In this document: positions 8,910 to 29,145 of the stretch, piece by piece
How the letters are laid out: the number at the start of each line of letters is the position of its first letter
Position numbering within the stretch: position 1 is the stretch's first letter
IMG/VR virus record: IMGVR_UViG_3300029305_011445
Origin: a virus
Lineage: Duplodnaviria > Heunggongvirae > Uroviricota > Caudoviricetes
DNA: 64,000 bases
Direction: 5' to 3' (one strand)
Translations under genes and position numbers: made by a program
The notes under the pieces: generated by a model
The model's database searches: none
Told to the model about the DNA's origin: nothing
Seen by the model: the letters and a program-made list of their open reading frames with translations, nothing else

Positions 8910-10175
8910 TTATCTCTTTGCCTTCCCACAATTGCTACAAAATCTACCTTCATTTTCTGCACCACATTCACAGGTCCATTTAGCTATTGGTGCCGGCTTA
9001 CCACATTCGCTACAATATTTACCTGTATTTGTCGCACCGCATTCACATGACCAAAAGTTCTTTGGTGCTGGCATTGGTTTGCCGCATTCGCTACAGAATT
9101 TACCCGTATTTACATTACCACATTCACATGTCCAACCGTTAGTCGTAGGTGTAGGATTTGTCACAATAGTGTTCTGTGCCGAATTCTGTTCTGCCGGTGT
9201 CATTAGACCGCTTAAACTTCCAAGTGTGCCATTCATAGCATTCATGCCCATACCAACGCCCATGAATCCAGCCATTGCACCACCTTCATTTGATCCGGCG
9301 GCTTTGATACCTTCTGTAATGTTTCTTACAGCCATGCCACGTAATACATTCGGATCGGTACCCATCATAGCACCTTCGTTACGCATATTGATAAGTTTCT
9401 GTGACTCTTCATCGTAAGAAATACTACCGATACCAACGGCCTGAATCTCCATGCCACGCATCTTTGTCCAATCTTCATCCAAGATATTGGCCATGTATTT
9501 ACCAAGTTCTAATGCTTTTGATGACACATGAGAAACTCTTGTCCCATCTGCTGACATCTGATTAATTGCAGACTGTAATGCTTGTAAGAACTCATTGATA
9601 TATTGTTCATTAATTTCTTCGATTTCAACTTTATTTGCGTTTCTTGGAATCACTTCTGCATAAAACTGTAACGGATTCGTAATCTTAATTGAATACGAAC
9701 CATGTGTTCTTAGAAATAGCTCTGCATTATAGAAACTGTCAAAGTAGTTAATCGGATTTCTTGTACCGAATTTGATACCTTTAATTTCCTGCAAATTGAT
9801 ATAGAAAACCTTCTGCATTCTAGGTGTTTCTCCACCAAATTTAATACGATTAAATGCATCTTTTAATGAATCACCAAACTGACCATTAAATAATGATGGC
9901 GTTGATGAATTATCAACCTTGTAATATCCCGGTTCAGCTGTATAGTCAACAATTTTACCACCATCAACAAGCAACATCATTTGATTATCGTAAACATGAA
10001 TCATTGAACCATTTGAAACTGTTACGTCAGTTCCTTTTGTATTTTGTCCTTTTCGAACCAAAACACCATTTGTGAATACGGTTCTTTCACCCATATCGTT
10101 TGGTTCAATTACCTCTAACCAGGTATCGGCAAACGAATCGCCTACTGCGCTTTTAATTGCCTGAATAAGTCCCAT
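8910..10175 (-). CDS. SPFH/band-7 domain protein with four C-terminal zinc-ribbon repeats (YdjI-like)
   Basis: N-terminal SPFH-like domain; C-terminus has four repeats of W(T/S)CECG..N.GK(F/Y)CSECGKP. Confidence 0.7.
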   Translation of the reverse strand: MGLIQAIKSAVGDSFADTWLEVIEPNDMGERTVFTNGVLVRKGQNTKGTDVTVSNGSMIHVYDNQMMLLVDGGKIVDYTAEPGYYKVDNSSTPSLFNGQFGDSLKDAFNRIKFGGETPRMQKVFYINLQEIKGIKFGTRNPINYFDSFYNAELFLRTHGSYSIKITNPLQFYAEVIPRNANKVEIEEINEQYINEFLQALQSAINQMSADGTRVSHVSSKALELGKYMANILDEDWTKMRGMEIQAVGIGSISYDEESQKLINMRNEGAMMGTDPNVLRGMAVRNITEGIKAAGSNEGGAMAGFMGVGMGMNAMNGTLGSLSGLMTPAEQNSAQNTIVTNPTPTTNGWTCECGNVNTGKFCSECGKPMPAPKNFWSCECGATNTGKYCSECGKPAPIAKWTCECGAENEGRFCSNCGKAKR

Positions 10176-10229
10176 TTTATAGTCTCCTTATCTATTTTAT
10201 TTTTATTAAAACAGAATTTTGTTTCAAAA

Positions 10230-10241
10230 ATAAATATGGTG
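10230..10241 (-). promoter_or_regulatory. consensus promoter motif
   Basis: exact copy upstream of 8910..10175. Confidence 0.6.
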
Positions 10242-10307
10242 ATTATTTTTACAAAACAAAAATACTGTAAAAAAGACTTGCAGTCGTGCAAGTCTTTCTG
10301 TTTTGTT

Positions 10308-10718
10308 TTAATAATTAGATTCTGTTTCAGATGCAACAACCGGTTCATATGGAATAAGTTCAAATAATACTTCTGCATCAATTCCATTGATATGAATCAC
10401 TCCTGGCTTTAAATCGTATACAGTATCATTGACTACTGCTACAACTTTTTTGATACTTTTCCATTTGTTTAACAGTCTAATAACATCATATGGATTAGGA
10501 TTCTTTGAAATGCCGCATCCGGAATTACGTACCGGAAATTTATTGCTGCCAGTTACAAGGCACAAACAATTCGGGACTTCTTTTGACATCGTTACATAAG
10601 CTACGGTTCGGTATCGAATACTTTCATTATTTGTAACCTGCATATCGTAACAAATATGACTGTCGCTCCAATCAATGTTTAAAAACTCTTCTCTTGTCAT
10701 AGTTATGACTCCTTTCAT
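10308..10718 (-). CDS. hypothetical protein
   Basis: 136 aa ORF with own promoter motif (10738-10749) and upstream hairpin. Confidence 0.5.
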   Translation of the reverse strand: MKGVITMTREEFLNIDWSDSHICYDMQVTNNESIRYRTVAYVTMSKEVPNCLCLVTGSNKFPVRNSGCGISKNPNPYDVIRLLNKWKSIKKVVAVVNDTVYDLKPGVIHINGIDAEVLFELIPYEPVVASETESNY

Positions 10719-10737
10719 ATATATATTGTTTATGTAT

Positions 10738-10749
10738 AATAAATATGGT
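10738..10749 (-). promoter_or_regulatory. consensus promoter motif
   Basis: exact copy upstream of 10308..10718. Confidence 0.6.
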
Positions 10750-10840
10750 ATCCAACAAATAAAAAAGACTCACAACCATCGTTGCAAGTCTTTTTCTGCT
10801 TTCTCTGTTTCATTAAGTTTGTTCACAGCCACTTAATAAA

Positions 10841-12070
10841 TTAAGCAATTTCTACCAAATATCTGGCAGTTAACTGTTCTTCTTTGTAAACGATAATCTC
10901 ATCGTTACGAAGCATTGTACCTGCATGTGCATGCAAACAAGTAGCTCCTGGACAGGTACTCTGCAGTCTATTCCAATCGAAATTGTAATACTTTGGATCA
11001 AAAGAATACACGTCATAAGGTGTCCCATATGCACATTCATGAAGAATCATGAATCCGCTGTTTGCAGTACCCCTGGTCCAATATGACCCCTGTACCGAAG
11101 TATATCCGATAGATTTTCTTGCACGTGGGGCAAAATAAATACCATATCCAAACATTTTACCAGTGATAACAGCATTTGTTGGACGAAGTACTAAACCTGT
11201 TTTTAAAATATTCCAAACATTCTCGTTCCGGGTTCCATGCCAGAGTAATTTAATATCATTATCTGCCATACCATGGTCTGCAACAAATTTCTGGAACCGC
11301 TCTTCCTGTTTCTTATTAACAATGCGCCAAGCATTTTTGTAACGAGATTCATCTTCACCAAGTTCTTTCTTGATACGTTTGATATCCGCATCAGTAACTG
11401 GTGCGATTTCAATACCGAATGCTTCTAAAATAGTGTAATTATGCTCGTACTCATTTTCATCGATATCGGCTTCTTTGCTAACAATAACAACTTGACCGCG
11501 AAGTGTATCGAGCAATGACTGTTCCTTAGCAATAATATTGTTAAAATTTTCGTTGTCTGAAACAAGATGGTCTCGTACGTTACCCATTCGCCTCGGAATT
11601 ACTGCGTACAATTGCAATAACAAATCATTAAATTCTTTAACAGAGTCTACTTTTAATAAAGATTCGATTAACACCTGAGCCTCATCAATCATAGCCTGCG
11701 TTACCTGATTTGCCTGGACTTTGTAATTTGCAGCAATCACCTTTTTCGCATATGCCTGCAAACGTTCTACAATTTCAGCGATTGCTTTGTCATTAATTGG
11801 TAAATACTCATGATCTTTCTGTTTCACATCAGCAACAACATCAGCAATCAGCTCCGATTTATCTACGTAACCCTTCTTTACTTTGCTACGATAGATACTG
11901 TCCCATTCTCTGATTGGTTTTGTAATTGTGGTACAAGTAGAATCGATTCTGCCGTACTTGATTTCAATCACATCACCTTTCGGAGTCATGTCATAATACT
12001 TATTGTTGTTTTCTGCTGTCACCATTACAAGGTGTACCGGACGTAATTCACGTTCCATTTCTCTTCCCAT
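10841..12070 (-). CDS. poly(ADP-ribose) polymerase homolog (WGR + PARP regulatory + PARP catalytic domain)
   Basis: KLLWHGTRNENVWNILKTGL...GKMFGYGIYFA...DEIIVYK aligns residue-for-residue with the PARP1 active site (LLWHGSR...GKGIYFA...YNEYIVY), so the H-Y-E triad is intact; N-terminal YGRI WGR-like region. Confidence 0.85.
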   Translation of the reverse strand: MGREMERELRPVHLVMVTAENNNKYYDMTPKGDVIEIKYGRIDSTCTTITKPIREWDSIYRSKVKKGYVDKSELIADVVADVKQKDHEYLPINDKAIAEIVERLQAYAKKVIAANYKVQANQVTQAMIDEAQVLIESLLKVDSVKEFNDLLLQLYAVIPRRMGNVRDHLVSDNENFNNIIAKEQSLLDTLRGQVVIVSKEADIDENEYEHNYTILEAFGIEIAPVTDADIKRIKKELGEDESRYKNAWRIVNKKQEERFQKFVADHGMADNDIKLLWHGTRNENVWNILKTGLVLRPTNAVITGKMFGYGIYFAPRARKSIGYTSVQGSYWTRGTANSGFMILHECAYGTPYDVYSFDPKYYNFDWNRLQSTCPGATCLHAHAGTMLRNDEIIVYKEEQLTARYLVEIA

Positions 12071-12106
12071 AGTTTATCTGCTCCTTTCATGGGTTTTGTT
12101 TTGCAG

Positions 12107-12118
12107 AATAAATATGGT
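12107..12118 (-). promoter_or_regulatory. consensus promoter motif
   Basis: exact copy upstream of PARP gene. Confidence 0.6.
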
Positions 12119-12178
12119 ATGAGAGTATTTGAAACAATAAAAAGCCCGGACCATTTCTGATCCGGACCGTCTTTCATT

Positions 12179-13573
12179 TTACGTTGCTTTATTCATTGCA
12201 TTTAACTTCATTGCAACATCATAATAATTGTGATCTTTTTGATTTGCATAAAAATCTAAGATTGCATCAGGAACTTGTCGATCCTGTAAAAATTGAAGAA
12301 TCATATCTTTGATTTCTGACTCTTGTTTGGTTGGATCGAATATGTATGGGATGCGAAGGATGGGAATGCCGTTGTCTTTACAATATTTATTTTTTATACT
12401 GTCTCTATTAACAACTTTTTCAAATGAATATGTTCCAAAATGACGTCTATTTACAAAATGTTGTTCTCCATCATATTCAATAATCAACCTGTCATTTGGT
12501 AAATAAAAGTCAAACGACAAACGTTTTCGATTATTATGTACCACATTAATTGTATACTCAAATTGAAAATCAATATTATTATCTAATAAAAAATTATAGA
12601 TAAACCTTTCGGATTTTGGTGCATTCATATATGGATGTTTTGTTCCTTCAAGTGCTCTATGAGCGACTGTTGTTTCCCACTCTAATATTAAAACTCTATT
12701 TTCAGGATCGGTATATTGAATTCGCCACCATACTTTTTGATTGCTAGACACTGTTACATCTTTTGGTTTTAAATCTCCATTTTTTGTAAGGTGCCACTCT
12801 TTTGCTAAATCAGGTCGAAGCGTCGCTAAATCATTAAAGCCAACCCATACAGCTTGTCCCGTTAAATATGGACAATTTCTATTAAGAATCGTCCTATTCC
12901 CAATCTTAGACTCCCATTCAAAATCAAAATGTTTACCAGTAATTGGATCATCATATGGTAGGTACCACCACACTTTTTGATTCGAACCACATGTTACATC
13001 GCTTGGTTTTAAATTCTCATTCTTTGTAGGGTGCCATTCCATTGCTAAATCAGGACGAAGTGTTGCTAAATCATTAAAGCCAGTCCATACTTCTTTACCT
13101 GAAAGATATGGGCAGCCATTCCCTCGACTTCTATGATTTATTGCAACTTTCCATTCAAAATCAAAGTGCTTACCAGTAATTGGGTCATCATATGGTAAAT
13201 ACCACCATACTTTTTGATTGCTAGACACTGTTACATTTTCAGGTTTTAAATCTCCATTTTTTGTTGGATGCCATTCCATTGCTAAATCAGGGCGAAGTGT
13301 CGCTAAATCATTAAAACCTTTCCACACGGCTTTACCTAAAAGGTATGGACAGCCACTCCCTCGACTTCTATGATTTATTACAGCTTTCCATTCAAAGTCA
13401 AAATGTTTACCGGTAATTGGGTCATCATATGGTAAATACCACCATATCTTTCTACCACTACCCTCTGTTACATCTTCTGGTCTCAAATCACCATTCTTTG
13501 TTGGATGCCACTCTTTTGCCAGTTCTGGATGTGTTTCAGCCAGACTCAACTTTTGGTTCTTTTGCTTTGTCAT
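12179..13573 (-). CDS. zinc-ribbon-repeat protein fused to PD-(D/E)xK nuclease-like domain
   Basis: 3.5 tandem ~78-aa repeats (EWHPTKNGDL...KVWWYLPYDDPITGKHFDFEW...GCPYL.GK.VW.GFNDLATLRPDLA); C-terminal FDFYLPNDRLIIEYDGEQH resembles a PD-(D/E)xK/DUF559-type core. Confidence 0.65.
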   Translation of the reverse strand: MTKQKNQKLSLAETHPELAKEWHPTKNGDLRPEDVTEGSGRKIWWYLPYDDPITGKHFDFEWKAVINHRSRGSGCPYLLGKAVWKGFNDLATLRPDLAMEWHPTKNGDLKPENVTVSSNQKVWWYLPYDDPITGKHFDFEWKVAINHRSRGNGCPYLSGKEVWTGFNDLATLRPDLAMEWHPTKNENLKPSDVTCGSNQKVWWYLPYDDPITGKHFDFEWESKIGNRTILNRNCPYLTGQAVWVGFNDLATLRPDLAKEWHLTKNGDLKPKDVTVSSNQKVWWRIQYTDPENRVLILEWETTVAHRALEGTKHPYMNAPKSERFIYNFLLDNNIDFQFEYTINVVHNNRKRLSFDFYLPNDRLIIEYDGEQHFVNRRHFGTYSFEKVVNRDSIKNKYCKDNGIPILRIPYIFDPTKQESEIKDMILQFLQDRQVPDAILDFYANQKDHNYYDVAMKLNAMNKAT

Positions 13574-13625
13574 TATATATTTCCACCATATCGTATTTAT
13601 CTTGTTTCATTTCTTTTTGTGACAA

Positions 13626-13637
13626 TATAAATATGGT
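13626..13637 (-). promoter_or_regulatory. consensus promoter motif
   Basis: ACCATATTTATA upstream of 12179..13573. Confidence 0.55.
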
Positions 13638-13694
13638 GAAAGAAATCGCAAAACAAAAAAACACGCATCAAACGATACGTGTTTCTTCTTTGTT

Positions 13695-14147
13695 TTAATA
13701 ATGATGTTCCAATTCTCTGTGACTAATGTAGTTGCCATTCAAATCAAAGACATACTCATACTTGGTCCATGATAAATCTTCAGAACCATAAAATGTGGCT
13801 CTAACAATCTTTTTGTCACCTTCTACTTTTACAGAAGTCTCATCAACATCGGTACAATTTAACAAGAAATCAAGAGTGCTCATGCAATTTTGCTGCCACT
13901 TTGCTTTTGAAACAGGTTTTGTTGTTTCCTGCAACTTTTTGATCGCAAGTCTCATCGCCGCATGCCATCTTGTAGCATCATATTCATCTTCCGAATATGT
14001 TTTGCCAGGTGTAGGTGCTACAATGTAATTTTGCGGCAACCAACCTCTTTTGATACCTTCTAAGGTTGTAACAATATCTTCGTTTGACATATTTTCTAAT
14101 GCATCAAGATCTGCTGCATCATATTCTCTTACGGTGTACTCTCTCAT
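13695..14147 (-). CDS. hypothetical protein
   Basis: 150 aa ORF, 12 nt after 14160..14597 (operon). Confidence 0.5.
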   Translation of the reverse strand: MREYTVREYDAADLDALENMSNEDIVTTLEGIKRGWLPQNYIVAPTPGKTYSEDEYDATRWHAAMRLAIKKLQETTKPVSKAKWQQNCMSTLDFLLNCTDVDETSVKVEGDKKIVRATFYGSEDLSWTKYEYVFDLNGNYISHRELEHHY

Positions 14148-14159
14148 TTTGTGTCCCTT

Positions 14160-14597
14160 CTAGCGATTTGCTTTTGCCATAAACTCGTTTAACTCATCTC
14201 TTGTTGCCATTCTCCATGCTTTTACAATATAATGCTGAAATGGCATTCCTACGTTAAATGGTTCGTTAACAAAGTCAATTGCTTCAACATCGTTTGTTAA
14301 CAATACTTTGACCAACACATTTACTGGTGGCAATTCATCTGTAACAGATATCCATGTGTCTGTTTTTTCTGCTTCATTTGGATTGTAAGTTTTTGGCATT
14401 TTGCACCATGCTACTACTCTGTCACCATAATAAGCCCATTCATTGTTTGTGAGTCTATCAATTCCTGTTTCATATTCACCATCCATATTAATGAATGTTA
14501 CCCAGATTTCATCTGACATTAATAAATTGGTATCAACTAATTGCTGCTCCGGGAGTACTCCTGTTGTTACTGGAATCCAGTTTGTTATTGTAATCAT
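14160..14597 (-). CDS. hypothetical protein
   Basis: 145 aa ORF with promoter motif 14673-14684. Confidence 0.5.
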   Translation of the reverse strand: MITITNWIPVTTGVLPEQQLVDTNLLMSDEIWVTFINMDGEYETGIDRLTNNEWAYYGDRVVAWCKMPKTYNPNEAEKTDTWISVTDELPPVNVLVKVLLTNDVEAIDFVNEPFNVGMPFQHYIVKAWRMATRDELNEFMAKANR

Positions 14598-14672
14598 TTT
14601 ATTTCTCCTTTTGAATTAATAGATGTACCTTATTGAACATTAGTAGTTCAATAAGCATGTATTTTGATACGA

Positions 14673-14684
14673 AATAAATATGGG
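14673..14684 (-). promoter_or_regulatory. consensus promoter motif
   Basis: CCCATATTTATT upstream of 14160..14597. Confidence 0.55.
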
Positions 14685-14735
14685 ACGTGAGGAATAAAAA
14701 AATGAGCCACATCACTGTGACTCATTTCTTTTGTG

Positions 14736-16937
14736 TTAATTTTCTCTACTTGCGTAAAATGCTCGACGCAATGTGCAAATGTCATCAAGTTCAAGCTGAC
14801 CACTTGTTTCGTTACGATCTTTCATCCATGCGTAAAATTCCTGTGCAAGCGGAATGTCTAATGACACAGATTTCCCGATACAACCATTTTTGAATACCTG
14901 CTCTGATACTTTTCGCATCTGTTTCCAGAAGTTATAGTAATGAAGCTTTACTTTCACCATAAACCCTGTCGCATCTTCTAATACAAATCCTTCAATCTTT
15001 CGACCGTTAAGTTCATAATCCGGATGCATTACTTCTTTGTACCATTTACGGAACTCTGTCCAACTATTGATTTCAATGGCTTTTTCTTTTGGTGTTAACC
15101 CGAAACGATGTGCTACTGCCACCATATCGTTGTATTCATATTTCTTGAATTCCATCTCATTTGATACGATATCAAGTAAGATAAGCTTGCTTTCTGGATA
15201 TTCAATGATATGCGGATCATGTTCCATATCAACGCATTCAAAAACAAATGTTACATCATTTTCTTTGATGAATGATTTCATTGCTTCAAGTGTATCTGCA
15301 GCAACAGTTTTATGTAACATCTCTCTTACCCATCCGGCATAATCGCCTTCAACTGTTGATTTACTTGCAATAAGTAAGTTGTCACCATATTCATCGTAAC
15401 TAACCATGCCTAAGAATCCATTTTCTTTTACGTAACCAATTAATGGATACTGTAAATTCTTTTCTAACGAACTGAATAATGTTTCAGGACGTTCGTTAAC
15501 ATTAAAGAATTTTTCAAACGAGCGCATGCATACCTTGTTTCTAAAAGTGTCAATGAACAAACCTCTTGCTTTACAAGTCTGTTCGTTCCAAACTTTACCG
15601 TAAAATGCTTTTGATGTAAAATTGAATGATGAAATATTGCCAAACTGTTTCTCCTGTACATATGGATTATTACGTAACATAGTGACAAGTTCTTCAATTG
15701 TTTCAGGAACTTTATCTGTCACAATCTTTTCCTGTTTTGGTTCCACTTTTTTGAATACAGTATTTTTTGTTTCAAATGTATGAATACCATCAGAATCAAC
15801 CTGTACACATCTTAAATTGCCACCAAATTCAACTTCATTTTCCAGGTTGTACATACGTTCATTTGCCTGTACTGGAACACCAGTGATATTTCTATGTCCA
15901 TGAATCTGAGTGACAATACATGGGGCTGTTTCTAAGAATGTTTTCGCCACCTTGTCATAATCACTGTAGCGGCCAACACCATGGATCATCTGATCTGTTG
16001 AAATAAGTGTTAAGTTATCCGGTAATGTGCCCAAACCAGCATGTGTTACAAGGAAATATTTGTTTCCATAATGGTAATATGCACACTGTGCAAGTTTGCG
16101 ATAAAACTGTCTCAAGGTCTTTTTGCTAACACCTGCTTCAAGAAGCTGTGGTTTTGTGTTATTTTCAAACTCTTTTGATTTTGCTTCTTTATCATGTGCA
16201 AACAAATTGAGCCATCTTTCATGATTGCCTTCCAACAATAACACATTTTTACGATCCATGATTGTAAACAAGAATTCTAACACTGCTGCATTTTCAATGC
16301 CGCGATCAATGTAATCGCCAGTAAAAATGTAATATTCATCATCCTTGATGCCACCATTTGCGGCTAAATATTCCTGCAGCACAGAATGACATCCATGTAC
16401 ATCTCCAATATGATGAATCTTTTTGTAATGAGACAAATCAATTGGTTTCATCCAAATCGTATCAAGTTCATCCGGTGCAATGACTTTGATACCGGATGGT
16501 ACCTTTTCCGTTTTGAATCGTTCATACATTCTGTCGATTGCATAGTCTGGTACACGTTTTAACTCTTCTCTGAATACATTTCTACGTTTCACTTCTTCAA
16601 TTGGAAGCGTAGTAAAGTCGACAAGATAAATTCTGTAACGATAATCCTGACACAACTGTTTATATCGTGTTAATTCGGATGTTTTAGAATTTGTTGCATC
16701 AATTACTGTAAATGCACCTTTTTTCATACGGAATTCCAGCATTGAAAAAAGTGTTTCCCATGCAATATCAGAAACTCCCTGATCAATACCCATTGTGCCA
16801 TCGAGTTGCATCATTGGACTATTATACATAAGTCTCAATGTATCAGCACATAATGTATATGGTTCTAATCCATGTTCTTTGATCCAAGTGCTCTTGCCAC
16901 ATCCAGGTGCGCCTCGTAAAATTAATAATGTTCTCAT
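14736..16937 (-). CDS. Pnkp-like polynucleotide kinase-phosphatase-ligase (RNA/DNA end-healing and sealing)
   Basis: N-terminal P-loop GAPGCGKST kinase; central calcineurin-like phosphoesterase motifs GDVHG, GDYIDRG, GNHE; C-terminal adenylyltransferase-like domain with KENG (KxDG-like) motif, as in Clostridium thermocellum Pnkp. Confidence 0.8.
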   Translation of the reverse strand: MRTLLILRGAPGCGKSTWIKEHGLEPYTLCADTLRLMYNSPMMQLDGTMGIDQGVSDIAWETLFSMLEFRMKKGAFTVIDATNSKTSELTRYKQLCQDYRYRIYLVDFTTLPIEEVKRRNVFREELKRVPDYAIDRMYERFKTEKVPSGIKVIAPDELDTIWMKPIDLSHYKKIHHIGDVHGCHSVLQEYLAANGGIKDDEYYIFTGDYIDRGIENAAVLEFLFTIMDRKNVLLLEGNHERWLNLFAHDKEAKSKEFENNTKPQLLEAGVSKKTLRQFYRKLAQCAYYHYGNKYFLVTHAGLGTLPDNLTLISTDQMIHGVGRYSDYDKVAKTFLETAPCIVTQIHGHRNITGVPVQANERMYNLENEVEFGGNLRCVQVDSDGIHTFETKNTVFKKVEPKQEKIVTDKVPETIEELVTMLRNNPYVQEKQFGNISSFNFTSKAFYGKVWNEQTCKARGLFIDTFRNKVCMRSFEKFFNVNERPETLFSSLEKNLQYPLIGYVKENGFLGMVSYDEYGDNLLIASKSTVEGDYAGWVREMLHKTVAADTLEAMKSFIKENDVTFVFECVDMEHDPHIIEYPESKLILLDIVSNEMEFKKYEYNDMVAVAHRFGLTPKEKAIEINSWTEFRKWYKEVMHPDYELNGRKIEGFVLEDATGFMVKVKLHYYNFWKQMRKVSEQVFKNGCIGKSVSLDIPLAQEFYAWMKDRNETSGQLELDDICTLRRAFYASREN

Positions 16938-16978
16938 AATTGTTCTCTCCTTTTTTTTATAATCATTTTTCGATACAG

Positions 16979-16990
16979 AATAAATATGGG
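16979..16990 (-). promoter_or_regulatory. consensus promoter motif
   Basis: CCCATATTTATT upstream of Pnkp gene. Confidence 0.55.
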
Positions 16991-17062
16991 ATGTAAATAT
17001 AGAAACAAAAAAGCTTACACAAATTGCGCAAGCTTTTGGTGTTAAAATTCCGATTTCAAAGG

Positions 17063-17236
17063 CTATTCTTCTTCCTCTTCTAAGATTCTATCTGCATCTC
17101 TATCCAAATCTAAAACCTCATTTGCAACTAAATTTGCAGTAGTTCTATCACAATGAGCAATCATCATAATATGGTTTTCCATAACCGTCATAATATTATT
17201 ATGTGCTGCCTTAAATTCTTCCTTTGTTAATCTCAT
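17063..17236 (-). CDS. 57-aa acidic micro-protein
   Basis: ATG 17236 with GGAGG RBS, promoter motif 17320-17331 upstream; hand translation MRLTKEEFKAAHNNIMTVMENHIMMIAHCDRTTANLVANEVLDLDRDADRILEEEEE; below the 60-aa ORF-track cutoff. Confidence 0.4.
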   Translation of the reverse strand: MRLTKEEFKAAHNNIMTVMENHIMMIAHCDRTTANLVANEVLDLDRDADRILEEEEE

Positions 17237-17319
17237 TTTCTATTCCTCCATTTCTTGATAAAATCCTGATTCAAAGGATTCTTGCTTATCTCCTTTTGAA
17301 TCATATTAATAGTTTCAAT

Positions 17320-17331
17320 AATAAATATGGC
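17320..17331 (-). promoter_or_regulatory. consensus promoter motif
   Basis: GCCATATTTATT upstream of micro-ORF 17063..17236. Confidence 0.5.
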
Positions 17332-17388
17332 ACACGTATTTATAAAAATAAAAAGAGCCACCGTATCAAACAGTGACTCTAGTTCCTT

Positions 17389-18024
17389 TTATGCAGCAAA
17401 GCAAGGCTCTTTTAACCAATCCATATTGATTCCATCAGTACTTGGTACAAGAAGTTCGGCTCCTTTTCCAGCTGCAACCATTTTTGTCATGAGACGGCCT
17501 GGAACCGATTCAGCGCACATTGGATCGCGACTAATTGCGTATTTGCAGAAAGTGAGTAATTCTTCATCGTTCAATTTGAGTTCCTTTAATATAGTGCTCA
17601 TATTTGATCTGTTAGAAAAATAATAAGTTTTTCCTTTTCTGTTGTAACCATCATTGAACTGTTCATTAAAAAGATATACAGCAGTCTGTAAATTTGGAAT
17701 GATAACACCGTCTTCAATTAATAATTTTGTACGATAACAATATGTATCATTTTTCATAAGACCCATAACAACCTTCTTGTCGGTTAAATCCGGTTCAAAT
17801 GATTTACCGGCATCTTCCCAACCATAAATCATTTTCATTGCTTCTTTGAAATTGTCAGCACGACCGGCGTTCATATATCTTGTTTCGATATAAGCATAGC
17901 TACCAGATGGTTTGATAATGGTGTATTTCTGACCGGATGGTGTTGTAATTTTCCAAACGGTCCGGGTTCCACCATCATAACATCCATAGTATCTTGTTGA
18001 TTCGCATTGATAATTTTTTCTCAT
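17389..18024 (-). CDS. hypothetical protein
   Basis: 211 aa ORF with own promoter (18065-18076) and terminator hairpin. Confidence 0.55.
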   Translation of the reverse strand: MRKNYQCESTRYYGCYDGGTRTVWKITTPSGQKYTIIKPSGSYAYIETRYMNAGRADNFKEAMKMIYGWEDAGKSFEPDLTDKKVVMGLMKNDTYCYRTKLLIEDGVIIPNLQTAVYLFNEQFNDGYNRKGKTYYFSNRSNMSTILKELKLNDEELLTFCKYAISRDPMCAESVPGRLMTKMVAAGKGAELLVPSTDGINMDWLKEPCFAA

Positions 18025-18064
18025 AGTTCTTCGTCTCCTTTTCTTTGAATATATTTATTGTATC

Positions 18065-18076
18065 AATAAATATGGG
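18065..18076 (-). promoter_or_regulatory. consensus promoter motif
   Basis: CCCATATTTATT upstream of 17389..18024. Confidence 0.55.
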
Positions 18077-18153
18077 ATACAATATTTGAACAAAAAAAAG
18101 AGCCAATACATAAATGTATCAGCTCAGTTTTAAATTACAATTTAGCTTACTAA

Positions 18154-18405
18154 TCATTTAAGCCAAACTGGTTTGCTAAACCTATCAGTATATGTAATTT
18201 CTGTTACTTCTTCTGAATCAATATCATATGCATCATCCCAATATTTAAGTAAATCTTCTTCCTTTGGTAAATAGCATACAATAGTTACATACTCAACCCC
18301 ATAGGTTGTGCACCACCAAGGCATTTGAATATCTGCCATGTCTATTAATGGTCTATAGTCATCTACGGATTTTGTTTTAAATCTGTATCGCATTAAATTT
18401 CCCAT
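18154..18405 (-). CDS. hypothetical protein
   Basis: 83 aa; third gene of a tight three-gene operon. Confidence 0.45.
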   Translation of the reverse strand: MGNLMRYRFKTKSVDDYRPLIDMADIQMPWWCTTYGVEYVTIVCYLPKEEDLLKYWDDAYDIDSEEVTEITYTDRFSKPVWLK

Positions 18406-18419
18406 ATTACTACCTCTTT

Positions 18420-18827
18420 CTAAACTAGATCGTTATTTTGTTCATAAAAGAATACCCACAACGGAAATCCGCTGCTTACGTTACATTCTTTTTGAATCGC
18501 AGTTAACTTAACATTTGTTCCAAGATATAATGATAAAAACCGTTCGATATCTTCAGGTTTTCTGCTATCGAAATACTGTCCAGTATCACCAAAAACTTCC
18601 TGGCAACAAGAATTGAATTTCTTATAGTCCCACTGATACAATCGATCAGAATAAACAGCTGAGTGCTTGTCTTTCTGGTACTCATTTAAATATGTGACAA
18701 ATGGGTCGAAGCTGTATGGATAGTTAAAAGGTGTCTTCTTTACACGGCGTCCATGGATGTCAGTGAAATTTGGAACAATTTCGCCATCGTTTAAGCAATA
18801 TCGAATGTTATTTGTGTTATCATTCAT
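18420..18827 (-). CDS. hypothetical protein
   Basis: 135 aa; middle gene of operon. Confidence 0.5.
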   Translation of the reverse strand: MNDNTNNIRYCLNDGEIVPNFTDIHGRRVKKTPFNYPYSFDPFVTYLNEYQKDKHSAVYSDRLYQWDYKKFNSCCQEVFGDTGQYFDSRKPEDIERFLSLYLGTNVKLTAIQKECNVSSGFPLWVFFYEQNNDLV

Positions 18828-18851
18828 AGTTATTTTCTCCTTTCAATAAAA

Positions 18852-19070
18852 TTACGCAACCATAAATAATTGCCACAATTTTGGATGTTGCTCAATATTT
18901 TCTGCCAAACATTTTGCAATAACTGCATTTGCATTAGCCCCACTTCCGGTATCCATTACATAACCATGTTCCGAAATTAAAACGGATTTCATAAATTTTG
19001 CAAAATCTTCATCAGACATGTAACCTTTGTTACAAGCGTCGTTTAATAATTCTTTTGTTTCTTTGTTCAT
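18852..19070 (-). CDS. hypothetical small protein
   Basis: 72 aa; promoter motif 19111-19122. Confidence 0.45.
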   Translation of the reverse strand: MNKETKELLNDACNKGYMSDEDFAKFMKSVLISEHGYVMDTGSGANANAVIAKCLAENIEQHPKLWQLFMVA

Positions 19071-19110
19071 ATTTGTTTGTCTCCTTTTTCTTGAATATAT
19101 TTATTGATAC

Positions 19111-19122
19111 AATAAATATGGT
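19111..19122 (-). promoter_or_regulatory. consensus promoter motif
   Basis: exact copy upstream of 18852..19070 operon. Confidence 0.6.
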
Positions 19123-19175
19123 TTGTAATATAAAAAAAAGAGATCAAACCATAATTGGTTTAACCTCTTGTTGCT

Positions 19176-19661
19176 CTACACTTCTTGTTCACAGTATCTT
19201 TTAAATCGATTTGTACATTTATCATCTGGCTCATTGTTACAAGACCCATACAGTTCTTTACATTTCTCGCACGTAAGAACTTCTGATAATAATATGATAG
19301 AACAATCTCCATGTTCCATTAATTCTTCAAATTCAGATATGAATTCGTAAAAAGTAACAGCGTCCATTTCTTGTATTTGATCACAAATTGATTGTTTCAT
19401 TTTATCTAAATTGTTCATTAGAATGTTCTCCTTTATTAAATTAGATTCATTTGATATGTATTCTTTGTGTAAATTATCCGCAAACTCTTTGTCGCAAAAT
19501 ATTTCTCCCATTTTAATTACATGAGCAATATTTCTGGGCATTGTTCCGGTCTCCCATTTTGAAATCGTGTTTTCTGAAACACCAATTAATTCTGCAAGTT
19601 GTTTTTGCGTCAGACTGAGTTGTTTTCGTTTTTGCTTAATACTACTATTAAATTCATTCAT
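19176..19661 (-). CDS. XRE-family HTH transcriptional regulator with Cys-rich C-terminus
   Basis: LSLTQKQLAELIGVSENTISKWETG helix-turn-helix; GGAGG RBS; upstream motif is a G-to-A variant (CCATAAATATGAA, 19678-19690). Confidence 0.75.
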   Translation of the reverse strand: MNEFNSSIKQKRKQLSLTQKQLAELIGVSENTISKWETGTMPRNIAHVIKMGEIFCDKEFADNLHKEYISNESNLIKENILMNNLDKMKQSICDQIQEMDAVTFYEFISEFEELMEHGDCSIILLSEVLTCEKCKELYGSCNNEPDDKCTNRFKRYCEQEV

Positions 19662-19803
19662 TTGTTCTTTATTGCCTCCATAAATATGAAACAGTTTTCT
19701 TTAGTTATGGGTTTAATTATATCACAATCAATATATTATTCCAAATATAAAAACCACCAGAAATTCTGATGGCTTTTAATTTTGCATATTCGCTTTGTAA
19801 TTT

Positions 19804-21162
19804 TTACAATGTCATTCGTTTTGCGGCTTCCACACATAAAGCACTTCTCTGCGCCTCTTCTTCTTCGAACGTAATCTGTGCACAAAGTTTTGAGCCCTTC
19901 ATCTTTTCTGCAGCAAATACTAATCCATTGTTTCGTTTGTCTAAGTATCTGGCATCAATCTGATTCGGATCACCCAGTAACACCACTTTTGTTCCTTCTC
20001 CCGCTCTTGTTACAATTTCAAGTGCCTGATGTACTGTCATATTCTGTGCTTCGTCGACAATCAAATATGTGTTTGGCAATGAACGTCCGCGAAGATATCC
20101 TACTGCCGCAATATTTACAATGCCCTTACCCATAACGTATTCAATCTGTTCTGCGGCAAGATCTAAGTCGCGTTCTTTGCCTGCAAAAATAGTTTTCATA
20201 TTATCCATAAATGGAGCAATGAGTGGATCCATTTTTTCTTCTAATGTTCCAGGTAAGAAACCTAAATCATTGTCAGAAATTGTATTGGTACGAGTAATCA
20301 TGACACTTTCGTATTTCTGATCTTTGTTTCGTTTCTTATTATCCATTGATGCATAAGTCTGTTCTAAGGCGCATGCAATTGCAAGTAAAGTTTTACCGGT
20401 ACCAGCCGGACCTTTACAAATAACAAGTGGAATTTCATCAGCCGGAGCTAAAAGTGCATGCATCAGCATTTTCTGTGGTGCATTTCTGCCTTCGATTCCA
20501 TATGCTGTTAACTCTTTATCATTAAGACGATATAACATTCCACTCTTGTGAACACATAATGCAGAAACATTACCATTCTTTAAAATTACATATTCATTTT
20601 CTTCTAATTCAATATCTTCTGGAACCGGATATTCTGTTGCTCCATAAATATCAAACATTGGGTCTGGCCACTCAATGAAGCATCTTCCTGTATATGCTTC
20701 ATCATCTTCGATCATTTCATTTTTGTAACTCTGTACTGTTACACCACATGCTGATGCATTGATTCTCATCGAAATGTCATTTGTAACAAGAATTACCGGC
20801 ATTGGGTACTTGTCACTCTTTTCCATACCAAGGACTGCAGCGATGATTCGATTATCTGCCACAGATAATGAATATCCATAAGGCAAGCAGTCTTCAATAC
20901 AATTTGTTTCAAGAAAAAGTGTTCCACCATTATGAAGATCAACGCCATCGATAAGGTTACCTTCCTGTCGCAAGGCATCTAAGATTCGAATACTCTCTCT
21001 GGCATTGAATCCAGCTTCACCTTTGTCGTTTTTGTGAGTATCTAGTTCCTGCAATGTTGTACCTGTGATAACTACATAGTTATCCGCAAATCCATAGATT
21101 GCATTTGGACTTGTCATTAAAATGTTTGTGTCGAGAACGTAAGTTTTCTTTGAGTTTTCCAA
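19804..21162 (-). CDS. PhoH2-type protein (N-terminal PIN nuclease domain + PhoH-like P-loop ATPase)
   Basis: YVLDTNILM PIN start; GPAGTGKT Walker A; DEAQN Walker B-like. Confidence 0.85.
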   Translation of the reverse strand: MENSKKTYVLDTNILMTSPNAIYGFADNYVVITGTTLQELDTHKNDKGEAGFNARESIRILDALRQEGNLIDGVDLHNGGTLFLETNCIEDCLPYGYSLSVADNRIIAAVLGMEKSDKYPMPVILVTNDISMRINASACGVTVQSYKNEMIEDDEAYTGRCFIEWPDPMFDIYGATEYPVPEDIELEENEYVILKNGNVSALCVHKSGMLYRLNDKELTAYGIEGRNAPQKMLMHALLAPADEIPLVICKGPAGTGKTLLAIACALEQTYASMDNKKRNKDQKYESVMITRTNTISDNDLGFLPGTLEEKMDPLIAPFMDNMKTIFAGKERDLDLAAEQIEYVMGKGIVNIAAVGYLRGRSLPNTYLIVDEAQNMTVHQALEIVTRAGEGTKVVLLGDPNQIDARYLDKRNNGLVFAAEKMKGSKLCAQITFEEEEAQRSALCVEAAKRMTL

Positions 21163-21237
21163 TTGAAAATGCCTCCTGCAATATAATAATATATTTTATT
21201 AGGCTCAAAACTTCTTTTATCGAAGTCTATCGCATGA

Positions 21238-21249
21238 AATAAATATGGT
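21238..21249 (-). promoter_or_regulatory. consensus promoter motif
   Basis: exact copy upstream of PIN-PhoH gene. Confidence 0.6.
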
Positions 21250-21305
21250 TTTCGCTTGTTGCAAAGCAGAAAAAAAACAGCCACTTTGCAGTGACTGTTT
21301 ATTAA

Positions 21306-21914
21306 TTACTCGTTACTATTTTCAGAATTGCATTCTTTCCAGACTGTATAAGCTTTTTTCTTATTCAGCCAATGATAAGCCATTTTTCTCGCTTTTGAAG
21401 AGCCATACTGTTTCGAAAAATAAGATTCTTCATATGCCATATTTTCTAACATAACCGTAACAAATGATTTTGTTTTGGAATCCATTGCAACCCCGGCGTC
21501 ACGTTTTTTATACCACCATTGCAATTCACCGTCTAAAGTAAAACTTTTCCCACTATATACTTGTCCGGCAGCAAGATAATCACACACTAATTCCAATGCG
21601 TATTTGAATGGCATCTGCAAATGTACTGTTCCTTTGTCAAACGAGTCCTGCCAATATTCGTAATGGTGCTTATTACGGCCTTTATGATGTAGCCAAGCCA
21701 TAGATATTCCATTATTTGCTTCTTTACACGCGTCAATTGGAGAGCGAGTGCCTTGATAATATTTTACTGATTCAAAAAACTCCGTTGGTGAATATTTGGA
21801 TAAGTCATGTACAATTCCCTGCCAATAAAGACCGGCTCTTATGCAGTTTTTGAATACAGCAATCTTATGTTTTGTAATAGTAACAAAATGTTTCCATATA
21901 TTTTTTATTTTCAT
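21306..21914 (-). CDS. hypothetical protein (possible HD-like metal-dependent hydrolase)
   Basis: 202 aa; GIVHDLSKY resembles an HD motif but is weak; no consensus motif upstream, only the UvrD-like gene's terminator hairpin. Confidence 0.45.
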   Translation of the reverse strand: MKIKNIWKHFVTITKHKIAVFKNCIRAGLYWQGIVHDLSKYSPTEFFESVKYYQGTRSPIDACKEANNGISMAWLHHKGRNKHHYEYWQDSFDKGTVHLQMPFKYALELVCDYLAAGQVYSGKSFTLDGELQWWYKKRDAGVAMDSKTKSFVTVMLENMAYEESYFSKQYGSSKARKMAYHWLNKKKAYTVWKECNSENSNE

Positions 21915-21969
21915 GGTTTTCTCCTTTTAAACAAACCCCAGAAACATATGTTACTGGGGCTCGTTTTTC

Positions 21970-24171
21970 TTATAAATCTAATGTTAACTGTTTTGCGTTT
22001 TTGGTTAACGAATCATATTGTTTCTTTTCTGCATCTGTAAGAGGTCTACTCTTCCCTGATGCTTTGGATGATTTTGTCGTTTTTCCACCACCTTTGTATG
22101 ACGGTGAATATGGACTTCGTTTTGTCATTCCTAATCCAGTAACAGTTGATCCGGAAGCCACAGATGCATCAAGTTCTGCCATGCGTTTTGCTTTCGCTTC
22201 TGCACGTTTATTTCTTGCACTTTCATTTTTGGCGGCACGGCGTTCTAATTCACGCTGTGCTTTTGCCTGTTTCATTGCAAGAATTTCAGCCTCGAACTCT
22301 TTTTCTTTGTCGGTTACTTTGTATAAATCATGTAAAAACTGATTGTATGTTTCACCGGCAAACTCATCCGAATATGCTACGTACTCGCTAACAACATGTA
22401 ACAGTTCTTTAGCTCTCGTCATAGATACGAATAAAAGACGTCGTCTTTCTTCTACTTCCATCACATTACGAGCTTTGTGAAGTACACGACTGTCGTAATC
22501 AGAGATACTATTGATTACAACTGGCCATTCAAGACCCTTAGATGAATGAGCAGTAATCAGTGTCACACCTTCATATCGCTGATCCATCTTTGCTTCCGTA
22601 TCCTTGCCAAATCGTTTAAAATTCTGAATAAATTCGATCTCTTTTGCAAGAGCAGATTTGTTCGGATCATCCGGATCAATCTTTGTATCTTCATCGTAAA
22701 CCATATCTAACCATTTCTGATATAATTCATCGTCTCCGATATTAATTGCTTCCAGATATTCGTGCCACTTACGTAACTGGTTCTCAGGTGTCATAAGTTC
22801 AAAGCTACTGAAGCTGCGACGTAATTCATCGATTTCAGCTGAAATCTCATCATCAGTCAACTCTTCGTAAATTTTGCCATCGTATTTTGGTACGAGATAT
22901 TCAAAATAACTCTGAGTTGCGTCCGGATCAAAGAACGCGTCACAAAGTTTCATTGCACCACGGACACGGCTATTTTCGATCAATTTAACCGGAGCCATAA
23001 TTACCCATGGAATATTAGCTTTTGATAACGCTGCAGAATACTTACCAAGATCTTTTTTGCCAAAAGTGATTACCGCAATATCGCGGTATTCATATTTGCC
23101 AGACTCGATAAGTTCTTTGATAATTTCAACAGAATGTTCGATTTTTTCAGATTCTGTCTCAAATCCTTTGATAACTGTTTTTCCACCTTTGCCTTTTGCA
23201 GCAATAAGAGGCTTGTCGATTCTGTTTACATTGAGTGCAACAAGTTTATTTGCCTGTTCAATGATTTCTTCGTAAGAACGATAATTCTGTGACATTAATA
23301 ATTTAGTTACAGGCTTGCCGATTTTTTCCTCGAAGTGAATCATATTATCAGGATTTGCGTTACGGAATCCATAAATTGACTGATTATCGTCACCGATTAC
23401 CATAATGGATTCGATAGATCCACCGTTGTCAGTCATACATGCTACCAAACGTTTTACAAATTCCATATTCATATCGTTGGAATCCTGGAACTCATCGATT
23501 ACCACATGTTTGATTTTCAAACTGTTTAAGTAATCTGGGTTTAAATCTAAAAGTTTAAGACCCATTGGCTCCTGATCAGCAAATGTAATCAAGCCTTCAC
23601 TGTTTAAAATCTTATTGTATGTATCATACAAATCAATGAAACAAGAAATAGACTGATCTGACATTTTACTATAAATACCAGCATCTTGGCATAACTCTTT
23701 TACTTTTTCGGCAGCACCGACCTCTGTGACATCAAGATTGGCGGATTTGATTAAATCAAATACTTTCAAAGCAATTGTTAATGCGCCCTGTGCTCCTTTT
23801 GCACCGGCGTTCATTTCAACAGGAATTGCATAATTCAAACCGTCTACTTTATTTTCACCGGTAACAAGTGGCAATACTTTTGCCGCAACACGAGTTGGAT
23901 TCGTATCAATTACAGTTGGAACATTCAAAAATCCCAACTGGTCATGAAATTTCTTAATTAAATCCATATCAAACGCATTAAATGTCATAGTTGGAATTTT
24001 TTCTGGATCTACATGAAATCCTTTTGTTGCAAATGCACCTGCTAATCTTTCGCGCATTTCCCTTGCTGCAGCATCCGTAAATGTTACTAATAAAATGTGG
24101 CTTAAAATGCTTTCCAGCCAGCTTTCTTTTTGCGCCTGAGTTGCGGTGCGTTTCTTAGTTTCTTTCGCCAT
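21970..24171 (-). CDS. UvrD/PcrA-like SF1 helicase homolog lacking Q-motif and Walker A
   Basis: motifs Ia (VTFTDAAAREM), II (VIDEFQDSN), IV (QNYRS), V (VTLITAHSSKGLEWPVV), VI (LLFVSMTRAKELLHV) present but protein starts ~35 aa downstream of where GxxGxGKT would be; lysine-rich C-terminal tail. Confidence 0.75.
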   Translation of the reverse strand: MAKETKKRTATQAQKESWLESILSHILLVTFTDAAAREMRERLAGAFATKGFHVDPEKIPTMTFNAFDMDLIKKFHDQLGFLNVPTVIDTNPTRVAAKVLPLVTGENKVDGLNYAIPVEMNAGAKGAQGALTIALKVFDLIKSANLDVTEVGAAEKVKELCQDAGIYSKMSDQSISCFIDLYDTYNKILNSEGLITFADQEPMGLKLLDLNPDYLNSLKIKHVVIDEFQDSNDMNMEFVKRLVACMTDNGGSIESIMVIGDDNQSIYGFRNANPDNMIHFEEKIGKPVTKLLMSQNYRSYEEIIEQANKLVALNVNRIDKPLIAAKGKGGKTVIKGFETESEKIEHSVEIIKELIESGKYEYRDIAVITFGKKDLGKYSAALSKANIPWVIMAPVKLIENSRVRGAMKLCDAFFDPDATQSYFEYLVPKYDGKIYEELTDDEISAEIDELRRSFSSFELMTPENQLRKWHEYLEAINIGDDELYQKWLDMVYDEDTKIDPDDPNKSALAKEIEFIQNFKRFGKDTEAKMDQRYEGVTLITAHSSKGLEWPVVINSISDYDSRVLHKARNVMEVEERRRLLFVSMTRAKELLHVVSEYVAYSDEFAGETYNQFLHDLYKVTDKEKEFEAEILAMKQAKAQRELERRAAKNESARNKRAEAKAKRMAELDASVASGSTVTGLGMTKRSPYSPSYKGGGKTTKSSKASGKSRPLTDAEKKQYDSLTKNAKQLTLDL

Positions 24172-24209
24172 AGTGTATATCCTCCTTTTAATTGTTTTTA
24201 CTATTGCTA

Positions 24210-29102: not shown

Positions 29103-29145
29103 AAATTCCTCCTATTGCGAAATATTTTATTTCGCGCCTTCCTGT

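Follow-up and report, generated by a model that had tools for sequence, protein, structure and literature searches.

The closest described counterparts of the locus reported here are the PeSL (promoter-early stem-loop) cassettes of T4-type phages, in whose hyperplastic regions a terminator stem-loop and a promoter flank non-essential open reading frames (ORFs) (PMC2839356, PMC4122927), and the phage morons, single accessory genes inserted between other genes with a promoter and a terminator of their own. We examined positions 8910 to 24171 of a 64,000-nt stretch of DNA (the window), which corresponds to approximately 32839-96838 of a 135.9-kb metagenome contig whose remaining 72 kb lie outside the analysis. 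A preliminary description of this region had proposed a eukaryote-like toolkit for the response to nucleic-acid damage. Our preferred reading, to which we assign a probability of roughly 0.7, is that the region is part of the hyperplastic accessory region of a large plasmid, built of uniform cassettes that are shuffled by recombination at their junctions and that carry cargo from the phage gene pool, each gene acting singly.

With PeSL cassettes the region has in common a composite hairpin-promoter element, present in many copies at single accessory ORFs, as well as variable regions and insertions or deletions (indels) located at the elements. It differs in that the carrier is a Firmicute plasmid, that the promoter sequence CCATATTTATT is not sigma70-like and probably has a reader among the sigma factors encoded by the element itself, and that the elements span the whole 64-kb window rather than discrete regions. 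The likeness to morons lies in the single accessory genes with their own promoters and terminators; in contrast to morons, all of the cassettes here use one element-specific promoter, and together they make up most of the region. In the layout that we propose, a cassette would comprise a terminator hairpin with a T-run, a TTTG-rich box, about 13 nt, CCATATTTATT, a ribosome-binding site (RBS) and one to three ORFs. Because the junctions resemble one another, they would serve as recombination linkers, through which cassettes may be gained, lost, and swapped between related plasmids. The cargo would be drawn largely from the gene pool of large phages, as PHROG matches and phage contexts suggest, and each cargo gene would probably act on its own.

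The junctions are defined by an element, CCATATTTAT(T), that is common to the intergenic gaps. It is present in 34 copies in the window, where 0.42 would be expected, and none of 100 shuffled controls gave more than 2. The copies range from position 156 to 61221 (examples are 24211-24220, 29147-29156, 40373-40382 and 53678-53687), and eleven lie in gaps of the region, on the minus strand, at 10230, 10739, 12108, 13627, 14674, 16980, 17321, 18066, 19112, 21239 and 24211 (span 10230..24220). Inspection of the site and ORF lists showed that the strand of the motif matches the local gene direction. An RBS and an ORF start follow 32 of the 34 copies, at a median distance of 41 nt, and a weaker TTTG-rich box is found about 13 nt 5' of the motif. 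On the upstream side, a T-run (T5 or longer) precedes 23 of the 34 sites, and at 24 sites the 65 nt 5' of the motif have a folding energy no higher than the 5th percentile for random windows (median -17.2 versus -8.0 kcal/mol for random windows; Mann-Whitney U test, p = 7e-11). Terminator-like hairpins in the region number 19, against 9.2 expected, and are positioned directly 3' of genes. In an independent repeat search, the main families of dispersed repeats in the region (D4 and D8-D13) turned out to be these same junctions. Most of the motif copies in the region come after terminator-like hairpins, and the proposal that these genes are individually promoted is well founded.

Canonical promoters fail to explain this unit structure, since a sigma70 promoter scan returned sites at the level of chance (75, with 74.6 expected); the sequence CCATATTTATT differs from TTGACA/TATAAT. 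A footprint of the DNA 5' of the helicase orthologs at five loci contained only one long invariant block, CCATATTTATT, plus a few bases of the RBS, and the hairpins at these sites vary in sequence while the stem and T-run are kept. The motif is family-specific: its density per 10 kb is 5.5 in the source contig, 3.5 in the sister plasmids described below, and 0.07-0.45 in all other fetched loci. Within the window it also stands ahead of the RecJ and RecU genes, the relaxase region, the RpoD-like sigma factor gene, and many unannotated ORFs. Occurring as it does ahead of unrelated genes throughout the window, it is a plasmid-wide feature and no signature of the 8910-24171 cluster. One of the copies, at 41170-41179 on the minus strand, has no RBS-preceded ORF of at least 40 aa in the next 400 nt; its target in the 40320-41170 gap, close to the switch in GC skew, might be a small ORF or a non-coding RNA.

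The candidate reader of the promoter element is the plasmid-encoded RpoD/RpoS-like sigma factor (28059..29156, minus strand, a span that includes the motif at 29147-29156; Pfam and NCBIfam), which probably recognizes CCATATTTATT; the sigma factor beside ParAB is kept in both sister plasmids. Such a reader brings to mind a co-regulated regulon for establishment and anti-defence, in which the genes are modular but the sigma-read promoter turns them on together, for example on entry into a new host, and the products neutralise anticodon nucleases, nicking, and NAD+-based defences and repair the incoming DNA and RNA. This idea draws on the presence of the motif at nearly all units, the sigma gene included, on a sigma–helicase–PhoH2 backbone that is kept next to ParAB in three plasmids, on the known counter-defence role of the Pnkp/Rnl1 class, and on PHROG matches that point to phage accessory functions. 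It has to contend with the same motif ahead of RecJ, RecU, the relaxase region and other ORFs, and with a cargo that differs between sister plasmids, and we consider it doubtful.

ORF calls and Pfam matches bore out the genes, coordinates, and minus-strand orientation given in the preliminary description. By motif and terminator the region divides into approximately 12 units, all on the minus strand. They begin with a UvrD/PcrA-like superfamily 1 (SF1) helicase that lacks the Q motif and Walker A (21970..24171) and a DUF5662 gene (21306..21914), and continue with PIN-PhoH2 (19804..21162), an XRE-family helix-turn-helix (HTH) regulator (19176..19661; HTH_3, 3.2e-12), the small-ORF unit g72–g135–g83 (18154..19070; one motif at 19112-19121, terminator at 18125-18100), and the single-gene cassettes g211 (17389..18024; motif 18066-18075, terminator 17380-17354) and g57 (17063..17236; motif 17321-17330, terminator 17037-17009). 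These are followed by the kinase–phosphatase–RNA ligase gene that had been called Pnkp (14736..16937), the two-gene cassette g145–g150 (13695..14597; own motif at 14674-14683), the DUF4379-repeat nuclease (12179..13573), PARP (10841..12070), the single-gene cassette g136 (10308..10718; motif 10739-10748), and an SPFH protein (8910..10175; Band_7_1, 1.3e-17; motif 10230-10239). The three C-terminal zinc ribbons of the SPFH protein are visible in its sequence as three CxxC...CxxC arrangements and in the DNA as three repeats of ~78 nt (family D7). Searches for tRNA, tmRNA and Rfam families found none, and so nothing akin to the tRNA-like RNAs associated with RNA-repair loci that contain SPFH genes. 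The XRE gene has its own sigma70-like extended -10 promoter at 19744-19716 in the promoter scan. The DUF5662 gene lies 55 nt 3' of the helicase gene, has no promoter motif of its own, and is probably co-transcribed with it; in the interval between them (21915-21969) there is a GC-rich hairpin, CCCCAG...CTGGGG, that lacks a T-run and could serve in RNA processing or attenuation and not as a terminator. As possible Macro- or Hen1-like partners, g136, g145 and g150 gave no Pfam hit and no hit to a Macro profile.

Two sister plasmids allowed us to follow the fate of single cassettes. In the first, L015, which comes from the same sample, the helicase is 84% identical, PhoH2 94%, and Pnkp 96%; g211 is 82% identical, and g145 and g150 are 87% and 96% identical. 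Its order is sigma factor, chemotaxis protein, helicase, PhoH2, a 406-aa ORF, g72, g135, g211, Pnkp, a 116-aa ORF, g145, g150, and g136. It is without DUF5662, XRE, nuclease and PARP, and g136 directly follows g150 at the place where PARP and the nuclease are missing. The second, L008, has a helicase of 81%, a PhoH2 of 78%, and a PARP of 77% identity in the order sigma factor, helicase, a 253-aa P-loop protein, PhoH2, two small ORFs, PARP, and a 509-aa ORF, and is without the Pnkp module, the nuclease, SPFH, XRE, DUF5662, and the chemotaxis proteins. No SPFH protein with Band_7_1 and zinc ribbons was found in the parts of the two plasmids that were fetched. PARPs at two further loci, L242 (65% identical) and L009 (61%), are solitary, in unrelated surroundings, and without the motif.

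Alignment by blastn of the window with L015 delimits a 2.9-kb indel block at 10772..13655 (minus strand) that consists of the nuclease and PARP cassettes and is present in the window and missing from L015. Both ends of this block fall in the terminator/T-tract just 5' of a promoter motif, the homologous flanks share 13 bp of overlap in L015, and the two junction regions cross-match each other at 74-84% over 67-122 bp. Junction-bounded exchange of cassettes is thus documented for one indel, and we infer that it applies in the general case.

Several points weigh against the shuffled-cassette reading. Downstream of the sigma gene, the order is kept for the helicase and PhoH2 and, in two of the three plasmids, for PARP or Pnkp as well, and a shared promoter would co-express the genes, so that functional cooperation among them is possible. 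The sister comparison comprises three loci, 64 of 136 kb were read, and one indel breakpoint was mapped. Promoter function, the assignment of the sigma factor, and recombination at the junctions are all predicted from sequence patterns.

We then asked how the cargo genes are distributed elsewhere. A PARP-anchored set was assembled from 80 species-representative genome loci and 80 viral loci with about 2.7 Mb of flanking sequence, and the neighbours were clustered. Within ±10 kb of PARP at these 160 loci, Pnkp, the helicase and SPFH were each found 0 times, PhoH2 and the nuclease once each, and DUF5662 twice. The 28 Pnkp-anchored loci contained 0 other components, g145 and g150 included, and the 38 nuclease-anchored viral loci contained PhoH2 once and DUF5662 twice. 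PARP and Pnkp are never within 10 kb of each other in 188 other loci. The preliminary description had named conservation of the neighbourhood as a check, and the genes proved to be unlinked in L008, in L015, and at the PARP, Pnkp and nuclease loci. Its other check, against defence-system families, was made by running PADLOC on 20 proteins. PhoH2, the helicase and XRE gave generic matches only (UvrD/GajB-type, P-loop and HTH models) with no partner genes, and 0 families were matched by SPFH, g136, PARP, the nuclease, g150, g145, Pnkp, g211, DUF5662, g135, g83, g72, RecJ or RecU. Because the genes are unlinked and none has a specific PADLOC match, both of them outcomes that the preliminary description had said would refute it, the reading as a toolkit fails. 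There is no evidence that the cargo proteins form one pathway.

The window PARP has the layout of a YGR/WGR domain, a helical domain, and a catalytic domain (1.9e-22) with an H-Y-E triad. The Pfam WGR match is weak (0.0023), homologs carry PF05406, and the 'KYGRI' of the window protein fits the YGR variant reported for bacterial PARPs (PMC5966428). In comparison with structures in the PDB, residues 141-245 align to the helical domain of PARP1, and the catalytic domain, with its His and Tyr, aligns as well. H278, Y312 and E391 are invariant across 17 PARP sequences, and the protein matches phrog_23333. By these features it is a typical bacterial or phage PARP, which would sense nucleic-acid breaks and ADP-ribosylate targets with NAD+. 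Among bacterial PARPs, activity in vitro has been reported for the Herpetosiphon and C. difficile enzymes only, and the physiological role is unknown (PMC8120803). The bacterial PARPs of Herpetosiphon aurantiacus and C. difficile CD160 (Clostridiales clade 1.2, PMC5966428) resemble it in the WGR/YGR–helical–catalytic layout, the H-Y-E triad, and a length of ~400 aa. The window PARP differs from them in being plasmid-borne with no PARG or Macro nearby, and its relatives are overwhelmingly in large phages, beside a TARG1-like Macro protein.

This Macro protein, of ~139 aa, is encoded directly 5' of PARP in 89 of the 160 loci and in 76 of the 80 viral ones, with a median gap of -19 bp (examples are L160:6950-7366 and L010:9551-9988). 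It was called by Pfam at 28.2 bits (cutoff 22), and its sequence resembles TARG1-type macrodomains. The next commonest neighbours of PARP are Pol III alpha (52 loci), an ERCC4-like nuclease (31), and NAD-dependent DNA ligase (27). The Macro–PARP pair is typical of large gut and rumen phage contigs, 171 viral contigs carry relatives of PARP, and no described function for the pair turned up in the literature searched. Because a profile of 92 Macro sequences finds none in the window, and single-sequence tblastn finds none in L008, L009 or L015, we conclude that the plasmid lineage carries the PARP writer without its usual Macro eraser. The PARP of L242 is also without a Macro neighbour. PARPs of 40-57% identity are present on 73-425-kb contigs (L021, L027, L043 and L094) from metagenome-assembled genomes labelled Treponema, Absconditabacterales, Pacearchaeota, and Nanoarchaeia; these contigs may be mis-binned genomes of large phages rather than cellular DNA.

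The protein called Pnkp, of 733 aa, has the Pfam domains AAA_33 (2.1e-17), Metallophos (8.7e-15), and RNA_lig_T4_1 (9e-44), and its active-site motifs are intact (GAPGCGKS, GDVHG, GDYIDRG, GNHE, and KENG). It matches phrog_8238 from end to end (2e-228). The best PDB matches of the ligase domain are to fungal Trl1 and T4 Rnl1, and those of the kinase are to the Pnkp kinase of C. thermocellum; the NCBIfam model bacter_Pnkp (TIGR04075) reaches 73 bits, against a cutoff of 750, and covers residues 3-302 only, the kinase and phosphatase. With its calcineurin-type phosphatase and Rnl1-type ligase, the protein is a predicted trifunctional enzyme of phage type for the healing and sealing of RNA ends, and not a eukaryote-type PNKP. 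T4 Pnkp and Rnl1 and the fungal and plant Trl1 enzymes share with it a 5'-kinase, a phosphoesterase that heals 3' ends, and a ligase of the Rnl1 family, whose KxxG nucleotidyl-lysine motif is present here. Here the three activities are in one chain in the order kinase–phosphatase–ligase, and the phosphatase is of the calcineurin/lambda type, whereas that of T4 is of the DxDxT type and that of Trl1 of the CPD type. The bacterial Pnkp/Hen1 and Pnkp1–Rnl–Hen1 systems (PMC4411300) have the same kinase and metallophosphoesterase types; in comparison with them, the protein of the window is without Hen1, its ligase is not of the Pnkp type, and the chain is ~120-140 aa shorter. No Hen1 methyltransferase was found among the neighbours g145, g150 and g57, which have no Pfam hit, or among the called genes of L001 and L015.

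Relatives of this enzyme were found on 23 viral contigs. Pnkp relatives are located in phage modules for replication and nucleotide metabolism. Some lie directly 3' of RlaP and a CCA-adding enzyme, a context that is recognised as an RNA-repair neighbourhood (PMC12776372). The most defensible functional call in the region, made by analogy with the enzyme's family, is that it would serve in self-protection or counter-defence. The action of T4 Pnkp and Rnl1 against PrrC is the known paradigm of such counter-defence. Of the earlier suggestion that the region is an anti-defence, repair, or defence module, this single-gene role is the part that survives; a coherent multi-gene system is not supported.

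The parallel with eukaryotes had been drawn from the joint presence of PARP, Pnkp, nuclease and helicase, and as a true analogue of single-strand-break repair the genes would work in succession, PARP sensing nicks, Pnkp restoring the ends, and ligase, nuclease and helicase finishing the repair of plasmid DNA. The PARP keeps both the YGR/WGR break-sensing domain and the H-Y-E triad, phage PARPs are often beside NAD-dependent DNA ligase, ERCC4 and Pol III alpha, and Pnkp-type enzymes are able to act on DNA ends in vitro. Yet the two genes do not co-occur within 10 kb at any of the 188 other loci, each sister plasmid has only one of them, the phosphatase belongs to the calcineurin type and the RNA ligase to the Rnl1/Trl1 type, and the window holds no XRCC1-like scaffold and no Macro/PARG eraser. 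We regard the parallel as superficial and this explanation as extremely unlikely.

The preliminary description was correct in calling the UvrD homolog P-loop-less, as Walker A and the Q motif are missing and the N-terminus is genuine, with a good RBS and conservation in L008. The protein starts ~25 aa before motif Ia, and the UvrD-helicase profile is matched only from position 46. It is not alone in this: of the 120 best homologs, members of ~60 clusters (41-84% identical) have their start 20-30 residues ahead of motif Ia and are without Walker A, and relatives of 950-1050 aa have an N-terminal domain of ~300 aa followed by AGAGSGKT. At L017 and L018, where the helicase is 53% identical, a separate gene two genes upstream encodes a 365-aa protein that ends in the Q motif and NAGAGSGKTE and covers positions 1-41 of the profile of which the window protein begins at 46. 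The product of this half-gene has a Cys-cluster domain at its N-terminus, besides the Q motif and Walker A, and at L019 and L020 a homologous half-gene is immediately 3' of the helicase (the pairs are L017:7965-9062 and 10001-12022, and L019:4915-7140 and 7601-8695). The UvrD-like protein would thus be the C-terminal part of a helicase whose P-loop resides on another polypeptide in related elements. Because motifs Ia, II (DE-QD), III, IV (R298), V, and VI (R577/R578 and R586) are invariant in 29 short-form members, their conservation argues for a live ATPase site that would be completed in trans, and not for a dead scaffold. Neither tblastn nor a profile found the N-terminal half in the window or in the flanks of L008, L014, L015 and L016, with positive controls at 5e-68 and 9e-43 for the profile; the plasmid may encode this half beyond the sequence analysed, or may have none. 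A pattern scan of viral contigs with the helicase gave no relatives, and a metagenome scan gave one distant locus, L014, that has nothing else in common with the window. The helicase clade belongs to the backbone of plasmids and integrative and conjugative elements, with topoisomerase III and HNH genes beside distant relatives. An SF1 clade without Walker A, with the P-loop on a separate gene in some elements, is unusual for a well-studied enzyme family.

This helicase also provides an argument for another reading, in which the region shields the host cell from phages as a defence or abortive-infection island, for example with a PIN-PhoH2 toxin, an NAD+-consuming PARP, and a helicase similar to that of Gabija. 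The window helicase shares the SF1A UvrD-like core with GajB and the UvrD-like defence helicases and matches the GajB-type hidden Markov models of PADLOC (best 1.1e-41). Both PIN domains and enzymes that consume NAD+ are found in defence systems, a general fact that lends the idea some support. A P-loop ATPase that follows the helicase in L008 has weak hits of the AAA_15, GajA and PtuA type. Unlike Gabija, however, the window helicase has neither a Walker A nor a GajA partner; the 20 proteins scanned include nothing like GajA, the helicase is accompanied neither by a GajA/OLD nuclease nor by any other partner that such a system requires, and the PADLOC matches are generic. Moreover, PARP, Pnkp and the nuclease belong to phage families found mostly in phage genomes, on the opposite side of the conflict. 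We judge a defence island very improbable. The ATPase of L008 is a 253-aa protein (L008:6921-7682) with an N-terminal P-loop in the slot that is filled by DUF5662 in the window; its matches, weak for AAA_15 and AAA_23 in Pfam and weak for GajA, PtuA and AriA types in PADLOC, belong to a protein too short for a full OLD/GajA.

A bolder combination of these observations would have the cassettes form a sigma-controlled regulon of counter-defence and repair in a plasmid family that rebuilds itself by junction recombination, an integrase-free 'integron' in which an eraser-less PARP marks broken nucleic-acid ends, the Pnkp–Rnl1 enzyme heals them, and the helicase is a motor of two polypeptides that receives its P-loop in trans. 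We think this unlikely, and return to the shuffled-cassette reading for the remaining cargo.

The nuclease gene contains four DUF4379 repeats of 237 nt (6.7e-46 in Pfam). They had been described as zinc-ribbon repeats, but cysteines retained in viral relatives are gone from them: the window repeats read 'WWYL...GCPYL', while those relatives have a 'GCP(Y/I)C' zinc knuckle. Because the cysteines kept in those relatives are missing here, the treble-clef fingers have probably lost their zinc ligands and do not bind zinc. In the C-terminal domain, residues ~298-444 match phrog_559, 9084 and 7140, which are phage homing or intron-encoded endonucleases, and a pattern FDF...ExDG..H...D..K is invariant across relatives. 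DUF2726 scores 21.5 bits, under its cutoff of 24.7. The earlier assignment to the PD-(D/E)xK fold is supported weakly and indirectly, by these PHROG matches and by profile matches in the PDB to AbaSI (E = 0.18) and to the endonuclease-like 3hrl (E = 1.4), both weak; sequence and profile searches of this domain and of DUF5662 against the PDB gave nothing significant, and single-sequence AlphaFold models were of low quality (pLDDT 37.7 for the nuclease domain and 41.9 for DUF5662). The best reading of the protein is as a putative selfish nuclease of the homing-endonuclease type. Relatives are present at 38 viral loci. DUF5662 itself is supported by Pfam (5.5e-34) and by phrog_20637; the description of this protein as HD-like found no confirmation, with no HD hit in Pfam and no hit in the PDB.

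PhoH2, of the RNase and RNA helicase type, has PIN_4 at residues 8-147 (1.1e-23) and PhoH at 223-446 (3.7e-45), and matches phrog_2765 over its full length (1.6e-97). It therefore has the full PIN_4 and PhoH architecture of the PIN-PhoH RNA helicase/RNases, and although it aligns over its full length to the NCBIfam PhoH2 model NF053827, its 212.7 bits are under the equivalog cutoff of 680. The XRE gene next to it is missing from both sister plasmids, so that no toxin–antitoxin-like pairing is evident. A pattern scan of viral contigs with PhoH2 gave no relatives.

Outside the region, the window encodes ParA and ParB, a Mob_Pre relaxase, and both RpoD/RpoS-like and FliA/WhiG-like sigma factors (Pfam and NCBIfam), together with BspA-type leucine-rich-repeat, DUF2225 and HD-GYP-like proteins. 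A RecJ-like DHH nuclease (DHH/DHHA1/RecJ_OB) is encoded at 38664-40319 and RecU at 53690-54214, both by Pfam. The GC content of the window is ~34%, GC skew tracks gene orientation, and a stretch identical to the window is present in a second metagenome sample. By megablast the region has no match in collections of phages and plasmids, and an IMG/VR search did not find the contig's own PARP and helicase, though both samples are represented there. Ten large unannotated proteins have no match to a phage structural PHROG, and there are no structural Pfam hits within the 64 kb. On the strength of ParA and ParB, Mob_Pre, two sigma factors, three methyl-accepting chemotaxis proteins (MCPs), no phage structural matches, and no IMG/VR record, we treat the element as a large clostridial-type, ParAB-partitioned plasmid of at least 136 kb with a Mob_Pre relaxase, from an uncultured low-GC Firmicute. 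The mobile element of the preliminary description is accordingly a plasmid. Identity as a phage or phage-plasmid was set aside because the 64 kb hold no match to a structural PHROG or Pfam family and the contig is absent from IMG/VR, an outcome that the unseen 72 kb could change.

The three MCPs, the FliA/WhiG-like sigma-28 factor (which scores slightly under the NCBIfam cutoff), and a SleB-type hydrolase make up a set of chemotaxis and cell-wall genes at 24279-27865, 44017-45639, 52839-53597 and 54503-55189, an unusual plasmid cargo with a flavour of motility and sporulation. The number of MCPs varies among the sister plasmids, counted as two here, one in L015 and none in the stretch of L008. 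A second SPFH protein, of the classic Band_7 type, is encoded at 31476-32510 next to ParB and has 79% identity in L015. Within the longest Mob_Pre ORF (51206-52630) there is a motif at 51281-51290, with an RBS and a 436-aa frame 29 nt further on, and the relaxase therefore probably starts near 51320 rather than at 51206.

What this analysis takes away is the tempting 'bacterial PARP–PNKP repair system', which we removed as unsupported. What it offers in its place is a picture of large Firmicute plasmids that would assemble their accessory genes through uniform promoter–terminator cassettes, similar to PeSLs but with an element-specific promoter. Three leads come with this picture: a promoter consensus that could be matched to a plasmid-encoded sigma factor, the SF1 helicase clade without Walker A, and a writer/eraser pair of PARP and Macro proteins that is common in the large phages of the gut and rumen.

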